DNA of 4,174 nt from a virus. Lineage: Duplodnaviria; Heunggongvirae; Uroviricota; Caudoviricetes. How positions within the stretch are numbered: position 1 is the stretch's first letter; every line of letters starts with the position of its first letter. The DNA is taken from IMG/VR virus record IMGVR_UViG_2695420624_000001; one strand, given 5' to 3'. The notes below the pieces were generated by a model that saw only the letters and a list, made by a program, of their open reading frames with translations, was not told where the DNA came from and made no database searches. Both the position numbers and the translations under genes were made by a program. Below, piece by piece: positions 210 through 4,174 of the stretch.

Positions 210-611
210 TTATCCCTGATAAAATGCCAGTATGCGCTGCATAACTTCACTCATCCGGCACTCGCGACAGATTATGTTTAGGCGACTGTCGTAGCGACGT
301 ATTTCTCCATCAGGTAACGACCAGATAAGGTCCGGATCAACCACAGCTGTTTTCTTCACCTTTGCCCTCGATAGTTTTTTGCGGGCGTTTTGCCAGTCCT
401 TACGCGCCTGTTCAGACGGGAATAACCCGTAGCCGGAGTTGTATACATCGCCACTGGCTACCAGCTCTCTGGCAAGAACGCTCATCAGATATCTAGTCGC
501 ACCTGTTTTAGCTTCCAGTTGCCGTAACGTCTCACGACCGCTCTGGCGCACGAGTTCCACCACCTGCCCTTTAATTTTTTCCCGCTCTTCTTGTGTAAAA
601 ACTTTTGCCAC
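210..611 (-). CDS. Hypothetical prophage protein (133 aa), last gene of the leftward early operon; the N-terminal half may be a winged-helix/HTH fold; function unknown
   Basis: Long ORF in the track. The start is GTG at 609-611, preceded on the minus strand by a strong Shine-Dalgarno AAGGGGGA (plus 615-622) with a 3-nt spacer; the next in-frame Met is far downstream (residue 43). It lies 40 bp downstream of the O-like gene stop (TAA, 652-654), same strand, consistent with an operon. Stop is TAA at 210-212. No family recognised by eye. Confidence 0.6.
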   Translation of the reverse strand: MAKVFTQEEREKIKGQVVELVRQSGRETLRQLEAKTGATRYLMSVLARELVASGDVYNSGYGLFPSEQARKDWQNARKKLSRAKVKKTAVVDPDLIWSLPDGEIRRYDSRLNIICRECRMSEVMQRILAFYQG

Positions 612-651: not shown

Positions 652-1617
652 TTATCCTCTGAAACCAGGCGGAATTTCTGTATCCGGTTCAGAAATATGA
701 TTCACACAACGCTGTACAGGTGAACGTCCCAGGCGGATGACCAGTTCGTCCCATTTTTCGCGGAGTTTTGACGGGCTCATGATGTTTTTTACCCAGAATG
801 GATCCCGCTGTACCCGACCAAACATTTCGCAAATTTGTCTGTGGCTTCTGCCATCCAGCATCCGCATTGTGCGCACGTCATTGGCCCAGGCTGTCCAGTT
901 AGGCTCTTTTGGTCGCATGATCTCTCCATCGTCGCTGGCAGCCTGTTCGTAAAGGTTCACGATCCGCCCCCAAATCCACTGCGCACACGCCAAATCCTCC
1001 CTGCTACCCCACTGGCGTTTTTTCACACTAAACACAACCGCGTCGGGGTTCCGGGTTAAAAAATCCTGTTCAGTCGTCTGCGGGTCCGGTTGCGAAGCTT
1101 CCGGACGAAAAGTGTTTTTATTCTCTGTAGTAATCTCTGTTGTATTCTCTGTAAGATCATCAGGCCATTTTGACCCGATGACATTGGGTCGTTTTGAACC
1201 AATGAAGCGTTTCATTTTGACCTCTTCCATCGTGTCATTTTGACCTGATGGAGCGGCGCATTTTGAACCGATGGATTCGTTCAATTTGCCACCATCTAAA
1301 AGCTCGCTCCCATAGTTGATCGTGTAGAAATTGGTCATATCGCGCTTTGATTTATTGAGCTTTTCACAACGCAAAAGCCCCTGCGTTTTCAGACTTGCAA
1401 ACGCGCGTTTTAACGTTGACTCTGACCAGAATGGGAACTGTTCCAGCCATTGTTCCGTTGTGTTATAAATCCAGCGAACACCATCACATTCCATACCGGA
1501 GTTGGTATCTCTCAACCAGTAGTGCAGTTGTTGCAAAACAATGGCTTCGTTTAAGCCGATTTTCATTGCCAGCTGCGTGTTTATAACCAGTGGGCGTTCA
1601 GCAAAAAGAAGACTCAT
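652..1617 (-). CDS. Replication initiator protein, lambda O-like (N-terminal DNA-binding domain, iteron-encoded linker, C-terminal domain); the track ORF extends to 1671 with a TTG start
   Basis: A 339-aa ORF occupies the O position after the cro-like and cII-like genes. Its central part is encoded by the iteron array, giving low-complexity peptide repeats (FIGSKRPNVIGSKWPDD), as in lambda O where ori lies inside the gene. The track start at 1671 is TTG with no SD; the in-frame ATG at 1615-1617 has a partial SD (GGATGG) and is preferred; another ATG at 1564-1566 lacks an SD. Stop is TAA at 652-654. Confidence 0.65.
   Translation of the reverse strand: MSLLFAERPLVINTQLAMKIGLNEAIVLQQLHYWLRDTNSGMECDGVRWIYNTTEQWLEQFPFWSESTLKRAFASLKTQGLLRCEKLNKSKRDMTNFYTINYGSELLDGGKLNESIGSKCAAPSGQNDTMEEVKMKRFIGSKRPNVIGSKWPDDLTENTTEITTENKNTFRPEASQPDPQTTEQDFLTRNPDAVVFSVKKRQWGSREDLACAQWIWGRIVNLYEQAASDDGEIMRPKEPNWTAWANDVRTMRMLDGRSHRQICEMFGRVQRDPFWVKNIMSPSKLREKWDELVIRLGRSPVQRCVNHISEPDTEIPPGFRG
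1119..1154. repeat. AT-rich block with three tandem 12-bp repeats (TATTCTCTGTAG / TAATCTCTGTTG / TATTCTCTGTAA) next to the iterons; candidate DNA-unwinding element of the origin
   Basis: TCTCTGT recurs at 1122-1128, 1134-1140 and 1146-1152 with exact 12-bp phasing, in a locally AT-rich stretch (about 1108-1160) immediately downstream of the iterons in the gene's reading direction, as for the AT-rich region of lambda ori. Confidence 0.45.
1157..1290. repeat. Putative phage origin of replication: five to six direct iterons of about 23 bp, core CATTTTGACC/CGTTTTGAACC, several near-palindromic (e.g. CATTGGGTC-GTTTT-GAACCAATG)
   Basis: Repeat cores seen at 1166-1175, 1190-1200, 1213-1222, 1236-1245 and 1259-1269, with a degenerate copy near 1283-1290; spacing is 23-24 bp. 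Each has a central T4 tract flanked by partial dyad symmetry (CATC...GATG). They lie inside the initiator coding sequence, matching the lambda ori-in-O architecture. Confidence 0.6.
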
Positions 1618-2119
1618 AATTCCATCCAGCTTTTTGTTGGTATTGCTGTCGATACGCAAGCTTGAAAGCAATTGCTTTTTCTATAAGTTCGTCAGTTTCA
1701 CGATCTACAACGGCAGGATCTGCAAAAAGCAGTCCAGATTCCACCACATCGCCATATTCTTTATTTAACCCGGCGATCATGTACGTAATACTTTTTCCAT
1801 CACTGATCTCACGATACAACCTGAAATCACTAATCCGGATAGCCTCCATAATTGCAGGCACTAGCGCTGTGAACTTTTCACGCTTATCCCTGGTGTCGAT
1901 AGCCTTCCAGCGTTCGAATATCTTCACTCGATTAACGCTAAGCGCTCGCTGATCAACCGCGCCACCTTCATATGTGACACGCTGAACATCGATGTTCGGG
2001 CGCTCTTTCAAAGCCCAGAATGCTTCAGTGATTAATATCGTCGCCTGCTCCTGTGTCATTCCTGGTCGACATATCCAGGCATCCAGAGCCTCACGAGCCT
2101 GTTCAGGAGTGATTTTCAT
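1598..2119 (-). CDS. Early-region protein (173 aa) in the cII / YdaT position between the cro-like gene and the replication initiator; putative CII-like/YdaT-family regulator
   Basis: Long ORF with ATG at 2117-2119, overlapping the upstream DicC-like stop (TGA 2103-2105) by 17 nt, which suggests translational coupling. Its own stop is TGA at 1598-1600, overlapping the start of the O-like gene. The family call is by position and size only. Confidence 0.6.
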   Translation of the reverse strand: MKITPEQAREALDAWICRPGMTQEQATILITEAFWALKERPNIDVQRVTYEGGAVDQRALSVNRVKIFERWKAIDTRDKREKFTALVPAIMEAIRISDFRLYREISDGKSITYMIAGLNKEYGDVVESGLLFADPAVVDRETDELIEKAIAFKLAYRQQYQQKAGWNYESSFC

Positions 2120-2330
2120 TGTTCAACCGCCCCGTCCGCTTCGTCTTACGATATTCGTCATAAACTTTGGGATCATACTGAAGCTCCCCGCCAGATGCCT
2201 CCTGTAGACGCATCGCGCGACCTTCAGGAACCAGTATCCCCCAGGCAGCAACACTTGCCAGTCTCACTCCTGCGGCATTGGCAAGCTTTGTTTTGCTGCC
2301 AAAAAAAGTAATTGCGTCAACTTTAAGCAT
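2103..2330 (-). CDS. dicC: Cro-like small DNA-binding regulator, DicC/YdaS family (75 aa from the ATG at 2328-2330; the track ORF starts one codon earlier at a TTG)
   Basis: Small ORF divergent from the DicA-like repressor. A strong SD AGAGGGGG (plus 2336-2343) sits 5 nt upstream of the ATG. A sigma70-like promoter lies on the minus strand upstream. Size and position match dicC relative to dicA in Qin. Confidence 0.6.
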   Translation of the reverse strand: MLKVDAITFFGSKTKLANAAGVRLASVAAWGILVPEGRAMRLQEASGGELQYDPKVYDEYRKTKRTGRLNNENHS

Positions 2331-2343
2331 CAAAGCCCCCTCT

Positions 2344-2361
2344 TGTTAGACTTTTCTAACA
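2344..2361. promoter_or_regulatory. Operator-like palindrome O1, TGTTAG-N6-CTAACA (perfect dyad), in the dicC-dicA intergenic region
   Basis: TGTTAG at 2344-2349 and CTAACA at 2356-2361 are exact reverse complements separated by 6 bp. The site overlaps the predicted -10 and transcription start of the leftward dicC promoter. The same 18-bp motif recurs twice downstream of dicA. Confidence 0.55.
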
Positions 2362-2388
2362 TTATTGTGCGCGGGATACCTAAGTCAA
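2361..2388 (-). promoter_or_regulatory. Putative sigma70 promoter of the leftward (dicC-like) operon: -35 TTGACT and -10 AATAAT with a 16-bp spacer
   Basis: Minus-strand sequence reads TTGACT (plus 2383-2388), 16 nt, AATAAT (plus 2361-2366), about 25 nt upstream of the SD of the dicC-like gene. The -10 abuts operator O1. Confidence 0.4.
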
Positions 2389-2410
2389 GAAAAATTAGAA
2401 TTACCTAACT

Positions 2411-2818
2411 ATGGATACAAGAACCCTAGGCCAGCGAGTTCTGGCGCGACGAAAAGAATTACGCTTAACACAACGAGAAGCTGCGCGCCTCGCTGGAGTT
2501 GCTCACGTCACAATTTCACAATGGGAAAGAGACGAAACCCAGCCAGTCGGAAAACGATTGTTTGCTTTAGCGGATGCTCTGAAGTGCTCACCTACATGGC
2601 TAATGTTTGGTGATGAAGACAAGGCACCAGTGCCTGCACAAGAACTTCATGTGGAAACAGAGCTAACTCCCAACCACAAAGAATTGATCGAATTATTCGA
2701 TGCTCTTCCATCTTCCGAGCAGGAAGCCTTGCTGTCTGAAATGCGCGCAAGAGTAGAAAACTTCAACAAACTCTTCGAAGAAATGCTTAAAGCGCGTAAA
2801 AATAAATCAATAAAATAA
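2411..2818 (+). CDS. dicA: HTH XRE-family repressor, DicA-like (135 aa), the cI-analogous immunity repressor of this prophage
   Basis: ORF of 135 aa. The N-terminal helix-turn-helix (LTQREAARLAGVAHVTISQWER) and the conserved blocks LFAL...CSPTW..FGDEDK and ELFDALP.SEQ...EMRARV.NFNKLFEE..KAR match DicA of E. coli Qin as recalled from memory, with the same length. It is divergent from a Cro-like gene. Stop is TAA at 2816-2818. Confidence 0.8.
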   Translation: MDTRTLGQRVLARRKELRLTQREAARLAGVAHVTISQWERDETQPVGKRLFALADALKCSPTWLMFGDEDKAPVPAQELHVETELTPNHKELIELFDALPSSEQEALLSEMRARVENFNKLFEEMLKARKNKSIK

Positions 2819-2854
2819 CATTCTTTTCAAGTGATTAGTTGCGCCCACTCTTTT

Positions 2855-2872
2855 TGTTAGACCAACCTAACA
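2855..2872. promoter_or_regulatory. Operator-like palindrome O2, TGTTAG-accaac-CTAACA (perfect; extended arms TTTGTTAG/CTAACAAA at 2853-2874)
   Basis: Same half-sites and 6-bp spacer as O1, located just upstream of the predicted -35 of the rightward ydfA-ydfB promoter. Confidence 0.5.
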
Positions 2873-2880
2873 AAAAACAC

Positions 2881-2909
2881 TTGCCTCTCATGTTAGGTTA
2901 TTCTAAATT
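2881..2909 (+). promoter_or_regulatory. Putative repressor-controlled promoter of the rightward ydfA-ydfB (dicB-type) operon
   Basis: -35 TTGCCT (2881-2886), 17-bp spacer, -10 TAAATT (2904-2909), overlapped by O3 and preceded by O2. This is analogous to the DicA-repressed dicB-operon promoter in Qin. The hexamers are only moderate matches to consensus. Confidence 0.35.
2891..2908. promoter_or_regulatory. Operator-like site O3, TGTTAG-gttatt-CTAAAT (right half-site degenerate, 4 of 6)
   Basis: Same left half-site and spacer length as O1/O2. It lies between the predicted -35 TTGCCT (2881-2886) and -10 TAAATT (2904-2909) of the rightward promoter, where a repressor operator would sit. Confidence 0.4.
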
Positions 2910-2986
2910 ACTTTCCATCAAGACACCGCACGGTGTTCTCAGCAAACAGTTCCGCTACCCCGGCGTTAAGGGGAAATGAGGTCAGC

Positions 2987-3142
2987 ATGGATACTATCGA
3001 TCTTGGCAACAACGAATCTCTGGTATGCGGCGTGTTTCCCAACCAAGACGGCACGTTCACCGCGATGACGTATACCAAAAGCAAAACGTTTAAAACCGAA
3101 GCTGGCGCGCATCGCTGGCTGGAAAGAAATTCAGGTGAGTGA
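2987..3142 (+). CDS. ydfA: YdfA-like small protein (51 aa), first gene of the dicB-type operon downstream of dicA
   Basis: The ATG at 2987-2989 is preceded by GAGG (2978-2981). The track ORF (2933..3142) starts at an upstream GTG without an SD, so the shorter form is preferred. Size (51 aa) and position immediately downstream of dicA match ydfA of Qin as recalled. Stop is TGA at 3140-3142. Confidence 0.6.
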   Translation: MDTIDLGNNESLVCGVFPNQDGTFTAMTYTKSKTFKTEAGAHRWLERNSGE

Positions 3143-3143
3143 T

Positions 3144-3272
3144 ATGGATTTCGACGCAATCATGGAAAAGGCTTACGAAGAATACTTCGAAGGCCTTGCC
3201 GAAGGCGAAGAAGCTCTCAGCTTCAGCGAATTTAAACAGGCGCTTTCCAGTTCGGCAAAAGCTAACAACTGA
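3144..3272 (+). CDS. ydfB: YdfB-like small protein (42 aa): MDFDAIMEKAYEEYFEGLAEGEEALSFSEFKQALSSSAKANN
   Basis: Not in the ORF track (too short); found by manual translation. The ATG at 3144-3146 lies 1 nt after the ydfA stop (TGAtATG), with GGTGAG upstream. It is 42 codons to TGA at 3270-3272. Size and position match ydfB of Qin as recalled. The acidic, helical-looking composition is plausible for a small protein. Confidence 0.55.
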   Translation: MDFDAIMEKAYEEYFEGLAEGEEALSFSEFKQALSSSAKANN

Positions 3273-3364: not shown

Positions 3365-3898
3365 TCACTCAATCTCACCGCTATAGGCATTCCATCTGAG
3401 CATGAGGGTACGCCAGAAAATATCGTTTATGTGCAAAACACAGTATGGATTTTCGTCGGGAAGGAGTTGCCCTTCCATGGGGAGCAAAATATTAGTAGAT
3501 ACCAGTTTTTTTATATCAGAATCATTGCGTACAGCATGGATCACAGGATAGTTCCTCGATAATGCCGTAATAAGAATTTTTTTCTGACCCGCAGTCAAGG
3601 AATCGATAACTGCATTGATATGACTGATTGTTTTTTGTTCTCTTGTATTGTTCCGGTGACTTCGCCAGACCTTACGAAGAAATAAAGCTAAACGTTGGAG
3701 ATTTATAGCCAGCACAAAAGAAAAGGCAAAAACGAATACCGGGTAAATATAAGGAATGCTGATTTTGTCTTGAACATACTCCGGTACAGAATCAGGCATA
3801 AAGAGCAATATCAAAACAAAGATAATAAGCATATACATAAGGCGCTCTAAGGGTTCGTTACTGAATAACTTGCTCAACAAGCCGAATACATCAGGCAT
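3365..3898 (-). CDS. sieB: Two-transmembrane membrane protein (177 aa) in an AT-rich island; SieB-like (superinfection exclusion protein B) by architecture and synteny
   Basis: Long ORF with ATG at 3896-3898 and GAGAG upstream. Two hydrophobic segments (about residues 20-36 LMYMLIIFVLILLFMP and 49-72 IPYIYPVFVFAFSFVLAINL) precede a soluble C-terminal domain of about 100 aa. It is markedly more AT-rich than its neighbours. It is oriented opposite to the rightward early operon and points back toward the repressor, as sieB does relative to racR/kilR in Rac. The symbol is a position-and-architecture call, not a verified alignment. Confidence 0.5.
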   Translation of the reverse strand: MPDVFGLLSKLFSNEPLERLMYMLIIFVLILLFMPDSVPEYVQDKISIPYIYPVFVFAFSFVLAINLQRLALFLRKVWRSHRNNTREQKTISHINAVIDSLTAGQKKILITALSRNYPVIHAVRNDSDIKKLVSTNILLPMEGQLLPDENPYCVLHINDIFWRTLMLRWNAYSGEIE

Positions 3899-4010
3899 AT
3901 TAATAACTCTCTACTGTAAGGGTATTAAAATGCTATCACAGACTCTCGCTGTAGGGGTATAGCCGAGACCACCGAGCCTGAAGTGGTAAAAAGACAGGCA
4001 CACAACACGA

Positions 4011-4074
4011 AAGCGCACGGCGAGGCTGTTAGTTCATAAATGGTCTGTCGTTAAATTTTCGTCGACCGTGCGCT
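4011..4074. other. Long-range perfect inverted repeat AAGCGCACGG (4011-4020) / CCGTGCGCTT (4065-4074) enclosing a 44-nt AT-richer loop, within a GC-rich non-coding stretch
   Basis: Exact 10-bp reverse-complement arms seen directly. The surrounding 3940-4174 also holds small GC hairpins (CCGCG-aaatgg-CGCGG at 4090-4105; CGGGG-N9-CCCCG at 4118-4136). No ATG-initiated ORF of meaningful length on either strand. Confidence 0.3.
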
Positions 4075-4174
4075 TCCGGTTGTGGCAATCCGCGAAATGG
4101 CGCGGCGGTAAGTATGGCGGGGTTATTCCTTCCCCGTTGAGGACACCGGGTTGTCAGGTTGACCATACGCTTAA

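Follow-up and report, generated by a model that had tools for sequence, protein, structure and literature searches.

Four predicted operators of a DicA/DicC-type immunity switch in a Qin-type prophage of Escherichia coli

The stretch of viral DNA analysed here (4,174 nucleotides at its full length, hereafter the window; IMG/VR record IMGVR_UViG_2695420624_000001) very probably belongs to a Qin-type lambdoid prophage of E. coli and carries its immunity switch, in which four 18-bp dyads are the predicted operators for a dimer of a DicA-like repressor and, by analogy, also for the Cro-like protein DicC. Such operators and the DicA/DicC immunity switch are already known from the Qin prophage of E. 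coli K-12 (dicA-dicC-dicB(F): Bejar et al. 1986/1988; Yun et al. 2012, PMC3441716; Ragunathan et al. 2023, PMC10448788), and what we describe is a rediscovery of an ordinary system. A sequence-only reading of the window had proposed three operators of the form TGTTAG-N6-CTAACA on either side of the repressor gene. All three lie where it had placed them (with 0, 0 and 2 mismatches), and O3 is degenerate in its right half, as it had said; a fourth site, which scores like O3, had been missed (Table 1).

Table 1. Features of the immunity region, in window coordinates.
Feature	Position	Strand	Description
dicC-like cro gene	2103..2330	-	75 aa from ATG 2330, or 76 aa from TTG 2333
O1 (predicted operator)	2344..2361		perfect palindrome TGTTAG-ACTTTT-CTAACA; TGTTAGACTTTTCTAACA, 0 mismatches; K-12 Oc equivalent
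leftward dicC promoter (PR analogue)	2361..2388	-	-35 TTGACT 2388..2383, 16-nt spacer, -10 AATAAT 2366..2361
fourth site (predicted operator)	2393..2410		AATTAGAATTACCTAACT; degenerate, 3 mismatches; adjoins dicA ATG
candidate dicA -10	2396..2401	+	TAGAAT, 9 nt 5' of ATG; without Shine-Dalgarno
dicA-like repressor gene	2411..2818	+	135 aa; HTH N-terminal domain, disordered linker, helical C-terminal domain
O2 (predicted operator)	2855..2872		perfect palindrome TGTTAG-ACCAAC-CTAACA; TGTTAGACCAACCTAACA, 0 mismatches
predicted rightward early promoter (dicBp/PL analogue)	2881..2909	+	-35 TTGCCT 2881-2886, 17-nt spacer, -10 TAAATT 2904-2909
O3 (predicted operator)	2891..2908		TGTTAGGTTATTCTAAAT; 2 mismatches, right half only
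two-hairpin leader	2916..2977	+	5' end of rightward transcript; conserved; not an operator
ydfA	2987-3142	+	DUF1391, 2e-29; with ydfB, first genes of rightward operon
ydfB	3144-3272	+	annotated with ydfA in matching genome

When a position matrix trained solely on the sites of other genera was scored on the window, it gave 23.6 bits at 2855, 21.3 at 2344, 14.7 at 2393 and 14.5 at 2891, against 2.6 bits for the next-best site in the window and an average of 5.7 bits for the best site of a random window (300 windows). These four scores stand far above background, and the motif is therefore real and confined to the two intergenic regions, with two sites per promoter region; the same scan of the window gave no third operator above 2.6 bits at either promoter. 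Base composition predicts 3.3e-4 perfect copies for the window as a whole and 2.2e-5 for the 245 bp that make up the two intergenic regions, where two were found; for copies with two or fewer mismatches it predicts 0.2 and 0.013, respectively. The sites of a pair are 36 bp (O2 and O3) and 49 bp (O1 and the fourth site) apart, and the two clusters are separated by 511 bp. In an inverted-repeat search the repeat of O2 extended to 10+6+10, and the fourth site proved 89% complementary to O3.

Were the matches chance repeats in AT-rich intergenic DNA, the number of copies with up to three mismatches in the window would fit, as it is not significant (5 found versus 1.45 expected in a shuffle test); that test, however, is uninformative because three-mismatch matches are common, and the expectation counts, the matrix scan, the conservation of the half-sites and that of the positions across genera refute this reading, whose probability we regard as negligible. 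One three-mismatch match, at 1993-2010 inside the ydaT-like coding sequence and the same in K-12 ydfX, was itself taken as chance, because its matrix score falls outside the best twelve of the window (which reach down to -1.2 bits).

Among relatives (20 non-redundant loci from at least 8 genera), the density of sites with two or fewer mismatches is 7.6 per kb within the two target regions and 0.022 per kb elsewhere. The positions of the operators are kept among these genera. In 15 Oc-type sites the two half-sites are conserved at 0.98 and 0.94, the spacer at 0.54 and the flanks at 0.56-0.57.

The leftward promoter matches the consensus at 10 of 12 positions and is the sole promoter-scan match in 2250-3050; its start site would lie near 2354. 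O1 does overlap this promoter, as had been claimed: it begins at the last base of the -10 (2361), spans the expected start site, and covers from about -7 or -8 to about +11 or +12. It lies at -67 from the dicA ATG (its K-12 counterpart at -68), and its half-sites match those of K-12 Oc exactly (TTGTTAGTCATAACTAACAA, of the form TTGTTAG-N6-CTAACAA). Oc is annotated at -8 to +12 of K-12 dicCp (bioRxiv 10.1101/2025.05.13.653802), and the K-12 dicC start site, mapped by 5'RACE, has the same geometry as here (PMC3441716). DicA binds Oc in vivo and in EMSA with crude extract, repression in vivo depends on DicA, and a single A-to-C change in Oc abolishes both repression and shift (PMC3441716); in libraries of cloned dicCp, mutations build up within the DicA site (-8 to +12), in agreement with titration of DicA (bioRxiv 10.1101/2025.05.13.653802). 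The product of the divergent gene is, as proposed, a homologue of P22 Cro and DicC: it belongs to the P22_Cro family (5e-12), matches the P22 Cro structure 1rzs, and is 84% identical to K-12 DicC. Separately, a match to the YdaT box (TTGATT-N6-AATCAA) with three mismatches, at 2109-2126, spans the ATG at the ydaT-like start, as in Rac; what singles it out is its position, since matches of this quality occur at chance frequency (6 found versus 3.65 expected), and we do not count it as a site.

The identification of the gene at 2411-2818 as DicA-like likewise held. Its product matched only HTH-type families (HTH_3, 1.5e-14), with no Peptidase_S24 match in the domain search, and aligns with K-12 DicA over 132 residues at 57% identity (E = 4e-55); its N-terminal domain is homologous to that of P22 c2 (1e-18, 49-50% identity). 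In an AlphaFold2 model (pLDDT 81.5; input alignment without the K-12 row) the C-terminal domain is predicted as two helices, and the N-terminal domain superposes at an rmsd of 0.7 A on 3jxb/2r1j, the P22 c2-operator complexes. The core of the recognition helix (V33, S36, Q37, W38, E39, R40) is conserved across the sampled family, and H32 is found in at least 90%.

These data bear on which protein reads the dyads. If the main reader were the Cro-like DicC or a host factor (such as H-NS/Cnu or YjdC) instead of the DicA-like protein, one could understand why the half-sites are unchanged although DicA is just 57% identical to its K-12 counterpart and DicC 84%, and Cnu-H-NS and YjdC have indeed been reported at the K-12 dicC operator region. 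Yet K-12 genetics together with in vivo and EMSA assays link Oc to DicA (PMC3441716), and the recognition-helix core of the DicA-like protein is conserved. Moreover, where relatives have other HTH sequences, the palindrome at -67 is a different one too (CCTTAGG..CCTAAG, TGTTGAG.., TATTGAG..CTCAAT and ATTAAAG..CTTAAAT): among these wider relatives the palindromes change with the immunity module of the phage and not with the host, as sites of a host factor would not. We therefore hold this alternative very unlikely and retain the DicA-like protein as the predicted reader. The claim of a single repressor acting at both promoters stands in that the DicA-like repressor remains the core of our reading, but must be widened in that DicC should, by analogy, share the sites.

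For the dicA promoter, the candidate -10 has counterparts in relatives: of 31 distinct relatives, 26 have a TAnnWT hexamer that begins at -15 or -14, and 28 have no Shine-Dalgarno-like sequence. With this -10 only 9 nt from the ATG and no Shine-Dalgarno, we infer that the dicA mRNA is near-leaderless; it would start near 2408, with 0-3 nt of leader. The fourth site overlaps the candidate -10; its form A-TTTAG...CTAAC-T recurs at -18 in 12 of the 13 relatives with TTAG-type half-sites, and one locus has CGTTAG...CGAACT. It is probably equivalent to the K-12 'Oa'. In K-12, the degenerate sites Om and Oa showed no DicA binding when assayed in vivo (PMC3441716, data not shown there), and by analogy the fourth site and the equally degenerate O3 may for this reason be weak or need cooperativity.

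The rightward promoter was assigned by eye and by orthology, its 8 of 12 consensus matches falling below the threshold of the scan tool, and its start site would lie near 2917; by the published RNase III numbering, the K-12 start site is at most about 5 nt from the equivalent position. O2 and O3 do lie at this promoter, as had been claimed, and TTGCCT-17-TAAATT, which they flank and fill, is positionally orthologous to K-12 dicBp. O2 is centred at about -53.5 and ends 8 bp 5' of the -35; O3 occupies the spacer and the -10, is centred at about -17.5, and its degenerate right half is also the -10 hexamer. The order -35, operator, -10, CCATCAA is common to K-12 (TTGACC-17-TAATCT) and other genera, O3 has counterparts at the same position in K-12 (TGTTAGTCATGGCTAATC) and in other genera too, and orthologues of O2 lie at +36 to +44 from the stop codon in TGTTAG-type relatives. 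One expectation of the sequence-only reading failed: the 36 bp between O2 and O3, thought to allow cooperative binding on the same face, amount to 3.4 helical turns, so that with a phase offset of about 150 degrees O2 and O3 look almost opposite ways on the helix, and same-face cooperativity is also opposed by the spacing of 33-36 bp among relatives.

Could O1 and O2 be the only true operators, with O3 and the fourth site being promoter elements (the rightward -10, and the dicA -10 with its start region), derived from half-operators or constrained like them but unbound in vivo? Both sites are degenerate exactly in the half that overlaps a -10-like hexamer (TAAATT and TAGAAT), which together with the K-12 result for Om and Oa (PMC3441716) would agree with this. 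We nevertheless consider it unlikely. Both sites of K-12 dicBp have two mismatches and dicBp is tightly repressed by DicA (PMC10448788), which means that degenerate sites are functional in K-12; repression from O2 alone, 5' of the -35, would be poor. The TGTTAG/GTTAG half of O3 is intact or nearly so in nearly all TGTTAG-type relatives (AATTAG in one locus, L014), with the CTAA start of the other half kept in register, and O3 and the fourth site reach 14.5-14.7 bits against a next-best background of 2.6. Four operators thus remain the preferred reading.

The palindromes might instead act as RNA or DNA structure, O2 for example as a dicA terminator hairpin and O1 as a hairpin in the dicC 5'-UTR. 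O2 is indeed a perfect 10+6+10 inverted repeat just past the dicA stop codon, and a scan gave no other terminator-like site after dicA; but its stem is AT-rich (2 G-C pairs in 10), no T run follows on either strand, and the terminator scan, which found no intrinsic terminator after dicA, did not accept O2 either. The same motif recurs at promoters, and conserved half-site letters with free spacers are the signature of recognition by a protein, not of pairing. We regard a structural role as extremely improbable, and operators as the better account of all four sites.

Downstream, the rightward operon had been described as ydfA-ydfB; both genes are present, but in the matching genome the unit continues to dicF, a dicB remnant, kil, exo, xis and int, with DicF about 36 nt beyond the end of the window, dicB truncated, and rem in the same prophage. 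The leader that precedes ydfA is an observation of its own. A covariance model of it matched at 36.9 bits (E = 8e-7) and found 18 loci; 81.5% of cells are paired versus 23-45% in slid controls, and 5 pairs show compensatory changes. A MAFFT/RNAalifold consensus recovered hairpin 2 and not hairpin 1; folded alone, the leader of the window is no more stable than shuffles (z = 0.42), and an Rfam scan of the window gave no match at E <= 1. Homology to the HK022 put RNA was considered and rejected, as the model had no match at E <= 1 across 7 kb of HK022 that include the immunity region with putL and putR, a modest test with few effective sequences.

The mechanism that we propose builds on what is directly observed of the sites (their existence, significance, positions, conservation and covariation with the immunity module) and on the protein homologies, and takes from K-12 the binding of DicA to Oc, its repression of dicC and dicBp, its stimulation of dicA, and derepression by Rem; for O2, O3 and the fourth site in the present allele, binding is predicted. 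Each N-terminal HTH domain of the DicA-like dimer, a close homologue of the DNA-binding domain of P22 c2, would read one TGTTAG half-site. Bound at O1, DicA would block RNA polymerase and keep dicC, the ydaT-like gene and the replication genes off, and its presence there would free or activate the dicA promoter, which is back to back with the dicC promoter and overlaps it. At O3, aided by the strong O2 5' of the -35, it would shut off the operon from ydfA-ydfB to dicF, kil, exo, xis and int. The weak fourth site over the dicA -10 would be a likely place for DicC or excess DicA to lower dicA, like lambda OR3; that DicC shares the sites is suggested by analogy with lambda and P22. As the repressor has no RecA-cleavable domain, induction would proceed through an antirepressor, a route suggested by the rem gene that this prophage carries, or would come from the DicC side of the bistable switch.

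The value of these results is mainly in annotation: they place the predicted operators and three predicted promoters of a common non-K-12 Qin-type allele, found with a query coverage of 80% or more in 566 of the 5426 complete E. coli genomes, and they lend comparative support to the location of the dicBp operators, the DicA site at dicB having been listed in 2020 as low-evidence and of unknown location (PMC7567609). In many genomes there is more than one such locus, with as many as 7 places in a single genome; with half-sites shared by two 57%-identical DicA alleles, cross-repression between co-resident prophages that control cell-division inhibitors of the dicF, dicB and kil type is plausible. 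It is also conceivable, though we hold it doubtful, that the widespread DicA family runs a minimal lambda-like bistable switch of an undescribed kind. In such a design each promoter region would hold a strong and a weak dyad at non-phased distances (35/36 and 49/50 bp), and the near-leaderless mRNA of the repressor would have its -10 inside the weak site, that site being a DicC-preferred equivalent of OR3; any cooperativity would be independent of face, arising from the flexible linker with the helical C-terminal domain, or from a loop that joins the two clusters across 511 bp. As a separate matter, and just as tentatively, the two-hairpin leader could be an RNA element, so far unrecognised, that takes the place of N-type antitermination.

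Among known systems, the repressors of Gifsy prophages, SinR/SinI and the phi3T/phi106 repressor-AimX pair share with the DicA-like protein an architecture of HTH and helical C-terminal domains, and architecture only: full-length superpositions on these antirepressor-controlled repressors are poor (rmsd about 10-13 A). With P22 immC (c2, Cro, OR/OL) the window shares a homologous repressor N-terminal domain, a homologous Cro, and 18-bp dyads at divergent early promoters on either side of the repressor gene. It differs in the number of sites per promoter, two (at spacings of 36 and 49 bp) where P22 has three closely spaced ones, and in the half-site, which in P22 is about ATTTAAG. Its repressor has a short helical C-terminal domain in place of the self-cleaving S24 domain, so that RecA-mediated cleavage is not expected. 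The likeness to lambda CI/Cro lies in a repressor gene between two outward lytic promoters, one operator motif for both, a repressor promoter back to back with the cro promoter, and a probably leaderless repressor mRNA; unlike in lambda, there is no SOS cleavage and no N gene after the PL-like promoter, the protein families differ in detail, and the sites differ in number and spacing. Instead of tripartite operators, with three neighbouring sites at intervals of about 20-24 bp, each promoter has two above-background sites; the K-12 literature gives three sequences per region (PMC10448788), whereas here no third exceeds 2.6 bits.

The closest system is the Qin prophage of K-12 itself, from which the window differs in several respects: DicA is just 57% identical and the intergenic DNA too diverged for megablast; O2 is perfect here and has two mismatches in K-12, with O2 and O3 separated by 36 instead of 35 bp; an 'Om'-like sequence is absent; the replication genes, truncated in K-12 (ydfW, ydfX), are intact; and ydfB is followed by an opposite-strand sieB in place of ydfC, with dicB truncated here. 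In K-12, DicA represses both dicC and the dicB operon (PMC3441716, PMC10448788) and, according to the K-12 papers, stimulates dicA; deletion of dicA derepresses dicBp 22-fold and Rem derepresses it 165-fold, DicA likewise has no S24 peptidase domain and is controlled by the small antirepressor Rem, and bistability with Cro has been reported (PMC10448788). The window shares with this system its gene order (dicC leftward, then dicA, ydfA, ydfB ... dicF rightward), its chromosomal site next to rspB (in the matching genome), protein sizes of 135 and 76 aa, the presence of rem, and the layout of the four sites, at -67/-68 and -18 from the dicA ATG and at +36/37 and +71/73 past its stop codon.

The TGTTAG-N6-CTAACA operator motif is genuine and restricted to the two intergenic regions on either side of the repressor gene, as follows from its matrix scores and from chance expectation. 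A position matrix built from sites in other genera only (the window and near-identical alleles were left out) gave four window sites 23.6 bits (2855), 21.3 bits (2344), 14.7 bits (2393) and 14.5 bits (2891), far above a next best window site of 2.6 bits and a best score in random windows that averages 5.7 bits. Base composition predicts 3.3e-4 perfect copies for the window and 2.2e-5 for the two intergenic regions, 245 bp together. The sequence-only reading had named three operators (O1, O2 and O3) and proposed such a scan: its coordinates are exact and the right half of O3 is degenerate as described, but the count of three was wrong, as a fourth site, 89% complementary to O3, had been missed. 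The set constitutes the operators of a DicA/DicC immunity switch of Qin type, in a form allelic to but distinct from that of E. coli K-12, and the sites very probably serve as DicA (and DicC) operators acting by promoter occlusion.

Operator sites and genes of the window
Feature	Position	Strand	Remarks
DUF977 protein	210-611	-	
339-aa protein	652-1671	-	replication protein O by annotation in the matching genome
YdaT-like protein	1598-2119	-	
DicC-like protein	2103-2330	-	P22_Cro family
O1 TGTTAGACTTTTCTAACA	2344-2361		perfect copy, 0 mismatches
Fourth site AATTAGAATTACCTAACT	2393-2410		adjoins dicA ATG; found by matrix
DicA-like protein	2411-2818	+	135 aa, HTH_3
O2 TGTTAGACCAACCTAACA	2855-2872		perfect copy, 0 mismatches
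O3 TGTTAGGTTATTCTAAAT	2891-2908		two mismatches, both in right half
YdfA (DUF1391)	2987-3142	+	
YdfB	3144-3272	+	
SieB	3365-3898	-	

The leftward promoter, TTGACT-16-AATAAT (2388..2361), is the sole consensus-grade promoter returned by the promoter scan in 2250-3050, and the proposed overlap of O1 with it holds, the last base of the -10 being the first base of O1. In its 20-bp form O1 covers -8 to +12, the same as in K-12, if transcription starts near 2354. The rightward promoter was read by eye as TTGCCT (2881-2886)-17-TAAATT (2904-2909); with 8 of 12 consensus matches it falls under the threshold of the scan tool, and its assignment therefore rests on orthology. The K-12 equivalent, TTGACC-17-TAATCT, is in identical register, and its start, derived from the published RNase III cut (+813/814), the 190-nt length of the DicF precursor and the place of DicF according to Rfam, lies about 5 nt or less from the predicted one. 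The order of distal site, -35, proximal site overlapping a TAAnnT-type -10, and CCATCAA is repeated with minor variants across genera (Escherichia, Citrobacter, Buttiauxella, Serratia, Rosenbergiella, Yersinia, Rahnella and an Enterobacter-type locus). O2 and O3 thus stand, as had been read, at a predicted rightward promoter downstream of dicA, in a block orthologous to that of K-12. O3 occupies the spacer and -10 (centre about -17.5; that of O2 about -53.5), and one half of it is degenerate because the same bases serve as -10.

The fourth site overlaps TAGAAT (2396-2401, +), a candidate -10 located 9 nt upstream of the dicA ATG. No Shine-Dalgarno sequence precedes the dicA-like gene in the window, 28 of 31 distinct relatives are without an SD-like sequence there, and 26 of the 31 have a TAnnWT hexamer beginning at -15 or -14. 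The conserved hexamer position and the missing Shine-Dalgarno sequence together suggest a dicA promoter at TAGAAT and a near-leaderless repressor mRNA, as the cI mRNA transcribed from PRM of lambda is likewise leaderless. The dicA promoter was not found in published K-12 work (PMC3441716, PMC7567609).

Same-face cooperativity between O2 and O3, which had been proposed from their 36-bp spacing, is contradicted by helical geometry, since 36 bp amounts to 3.40-3.46 turns, which leaves the sites about 145-165 degrees out of phase and puts them on nearly opposite sides. Among relatives the spacing is 33-36 bp, with neither spacing nor phase kept; between O1 and the fourth site the distance is 49-50 bp, or about 4.7 turns. 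Although the spacing argument is invalid, cooperativity could still arise through a flexible linker.

A comparative scan with one genome per species yielded 57 loci, of which 20 non-redundant loci were counted. Counting sites with two or fewer mismatches, these 20 have 7.6 per kb within the 270 bp surrounding the repressor gene and 0.022 per kb elsewhere, which speaks against the motif being equally frequent in unrelated sequence. In TGTTAG-type relatives two sites precede the ATG, at -66 to -68 and at -18, and two follow the stop codon, at 36 to 44 and 71 to 78 past it; a few loci of more remote relationship, whose intergenic regions are longer, have them farther from the stop. Across 15 Oc-type sites the commonest base makes up 0.98 and 0.94 of the two half-sites, 0.54 of the spacer and 0.56-0.57 of the flanks, a pattern we read as the signature of protein recognition. 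Relatives with a differing HTH (L008-L010, L013, L018-L021, L024, L026, L029, L034 and L038) carry other palindromes at about -67 from the repressor ATG, and similarly after the repressor stop: CCTTAGG..CCTAAG in a Pantoea/Erwinia/Enterobacter group, TGTTGAG.. in two Citrobacter/Superficieibacter loci, TATTGAG..CTCAAT in another group and ATTAAAG..CTTAAAT in Symbiopectobacterium. The motif thus tracks the immunity module rather than the host, and this co-variation favours the module's own repressor and Cro over a host factor. These relatives also offer a natural series for mapping repressor-operator specificity in the DicA family.

Over its N-terminal 70 residues the DicA-like protein matches the DNA-binding domain of P22 c2 (E = 1e-18), and superposing its AlphaFold2 model (pLDDT 81.5) on the c2-operator complexes gives an rmsd of 0.7 A and 49-50% identity. 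Within the sampled family the recognition helix does not vary at V33, S36, Q37, W38, E39 and R40, and at least 90% of members have H32. The model continues with a low-confidence linker (about 67-86), a helix (87-98) and a long helix (101-134); neither the family search nor the model contains an S24 peptidase domain, which fits the published picture of DicA as a repressor that escapes RecA cleavage and is under the control of the antirepressor Rem (PMC10448788). The DicC-like protein matches P22 Cro. In lambdoid switches repressor and Cro use common operators, and by this analogy DicC likely acts at the DicA sites too. Of the proposal that a single, DicA-like repressor governs both promoters, the shared motif and the DicA-like identity therefore stand, but exclusive control by one protein probably does not.

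Directly at the predicted rightward transcript start lies a conserved two-hairpin leader (2916-2977, +) with invariant CCATCAA, CTCAG and GTTCCGC, found by a covariance model in 18 of the loci searched. Pairing holds for 81.5% of the cells in its alignment, compared with 23-45% in slid controls, with compensatory changes at five pairs; folded alone, its stability is not unusual. It has no Rfam match, and an HK022 stretch (the immunity region with putL and putR) does not match the model. Because no N-like gene follows the rightward promoter, the leader might be a put-like, other antitermination or processing signal.

From 2250 to 3000 the window shows 100% identity to E. coli AR_0017 (L002), in a lambdoid prophage adjoining rspB/rspA/ynfA, the Qin site, that additionally carries rem, hokD, Q, kil, exo, xis and int. 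Leftward of this segment gene ends are offset by 12 bp (window 1598-2119, L002 8361-8870), which implies an indel of 12 bp within or close to the YdaT-like gene and a source strain not exactly the same as AR_0017. Across the ATG (2119) of that gene lies TTGAACAATGAAAATCAC (2109-2126, -), which resembles the YdaT-box TTGATT-N6-AATCAA; its 3 mismatches are statistically at chance level and its position alone is suggestive, as in Rac and CP-933P the box overlies the start codon of ydaT (PMC11879457). The rightward unit does include ydfA and ydfB, as had been read, but the operon runs far past ydfB in AR_0017, where DicF (RF00039) starts about 36 nt past the window's right end (L002 10961-11012), followed by truncated dicB, kil, exo, xis and int; the last 200-odd bases (3950-4174) are therefore probably dicF-precursor sequence. 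Phage genome records with this repressor type include mEp460, HannyBb, PhiR42_1, O157 PPompW phages and Cronobacter phiES15. Of 5426 complete E. coli genomes, 3829 have matches to 2411-2818, at up to 7 places per genome.

The closest known system is the Qin prophage of K-12, to which the window shows 57% identity in the DicA-like protein and 84% in DicC, with intergenic DNA too diverged for megablast. K-12 Qin has a perfect TGTTAGTCATAACTAACA 68 nt upstream of the dicA ATG, in the same layout; ATTTAGCATTAGCTAACT immediately upstream of that ATG, in the position of the fourth site; and TGTTAGCTATAGCATACA and TGTTAGTCATGGCTAATC between dicA and ydfA, 35 bp apart as against 36 bp in the window; ydfC follows ydfB, whereas the window has opposite-strand sieB there. 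The site at 68 nt is the published operator Oc (TTGTTAGTCATAACTAACAA), which confers DicA dependence on a reporter in vivo, is shifted by DicA-containing extract, is inactivated by a single A-to-C change and could not be cloned at high copy without mutation (PMC3441716); a massively parallel reporter study met the same selection for DicA-site mutations, with the site at -8 to +12 of dicCp (bioRxiv 10.1101/2025.05.13.653802). The K-12 dicBp is repressed 22-fold by DicA and relieved 165-fold by Rem, and DicC is required for spontaneous switching (PMC10448788); that paper credits operator sequences in both intergenic regions to Bejar et al. 1988, and in 2020 the DicA site at dicB was listed as low-evidence with location unknown (PMC7567609). 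The kind of system, its motif and its role are thus already published, and what is new here is modest: the allele coordinates, the fourth site, a comparative fix of the dicBp-type operators and a likely near-leaderless dicA promoter. Since the two DicA alleles, 57% identical, share the same half-sites and a genome may hold several such loci, co-resident prophages may cross-repress each other.
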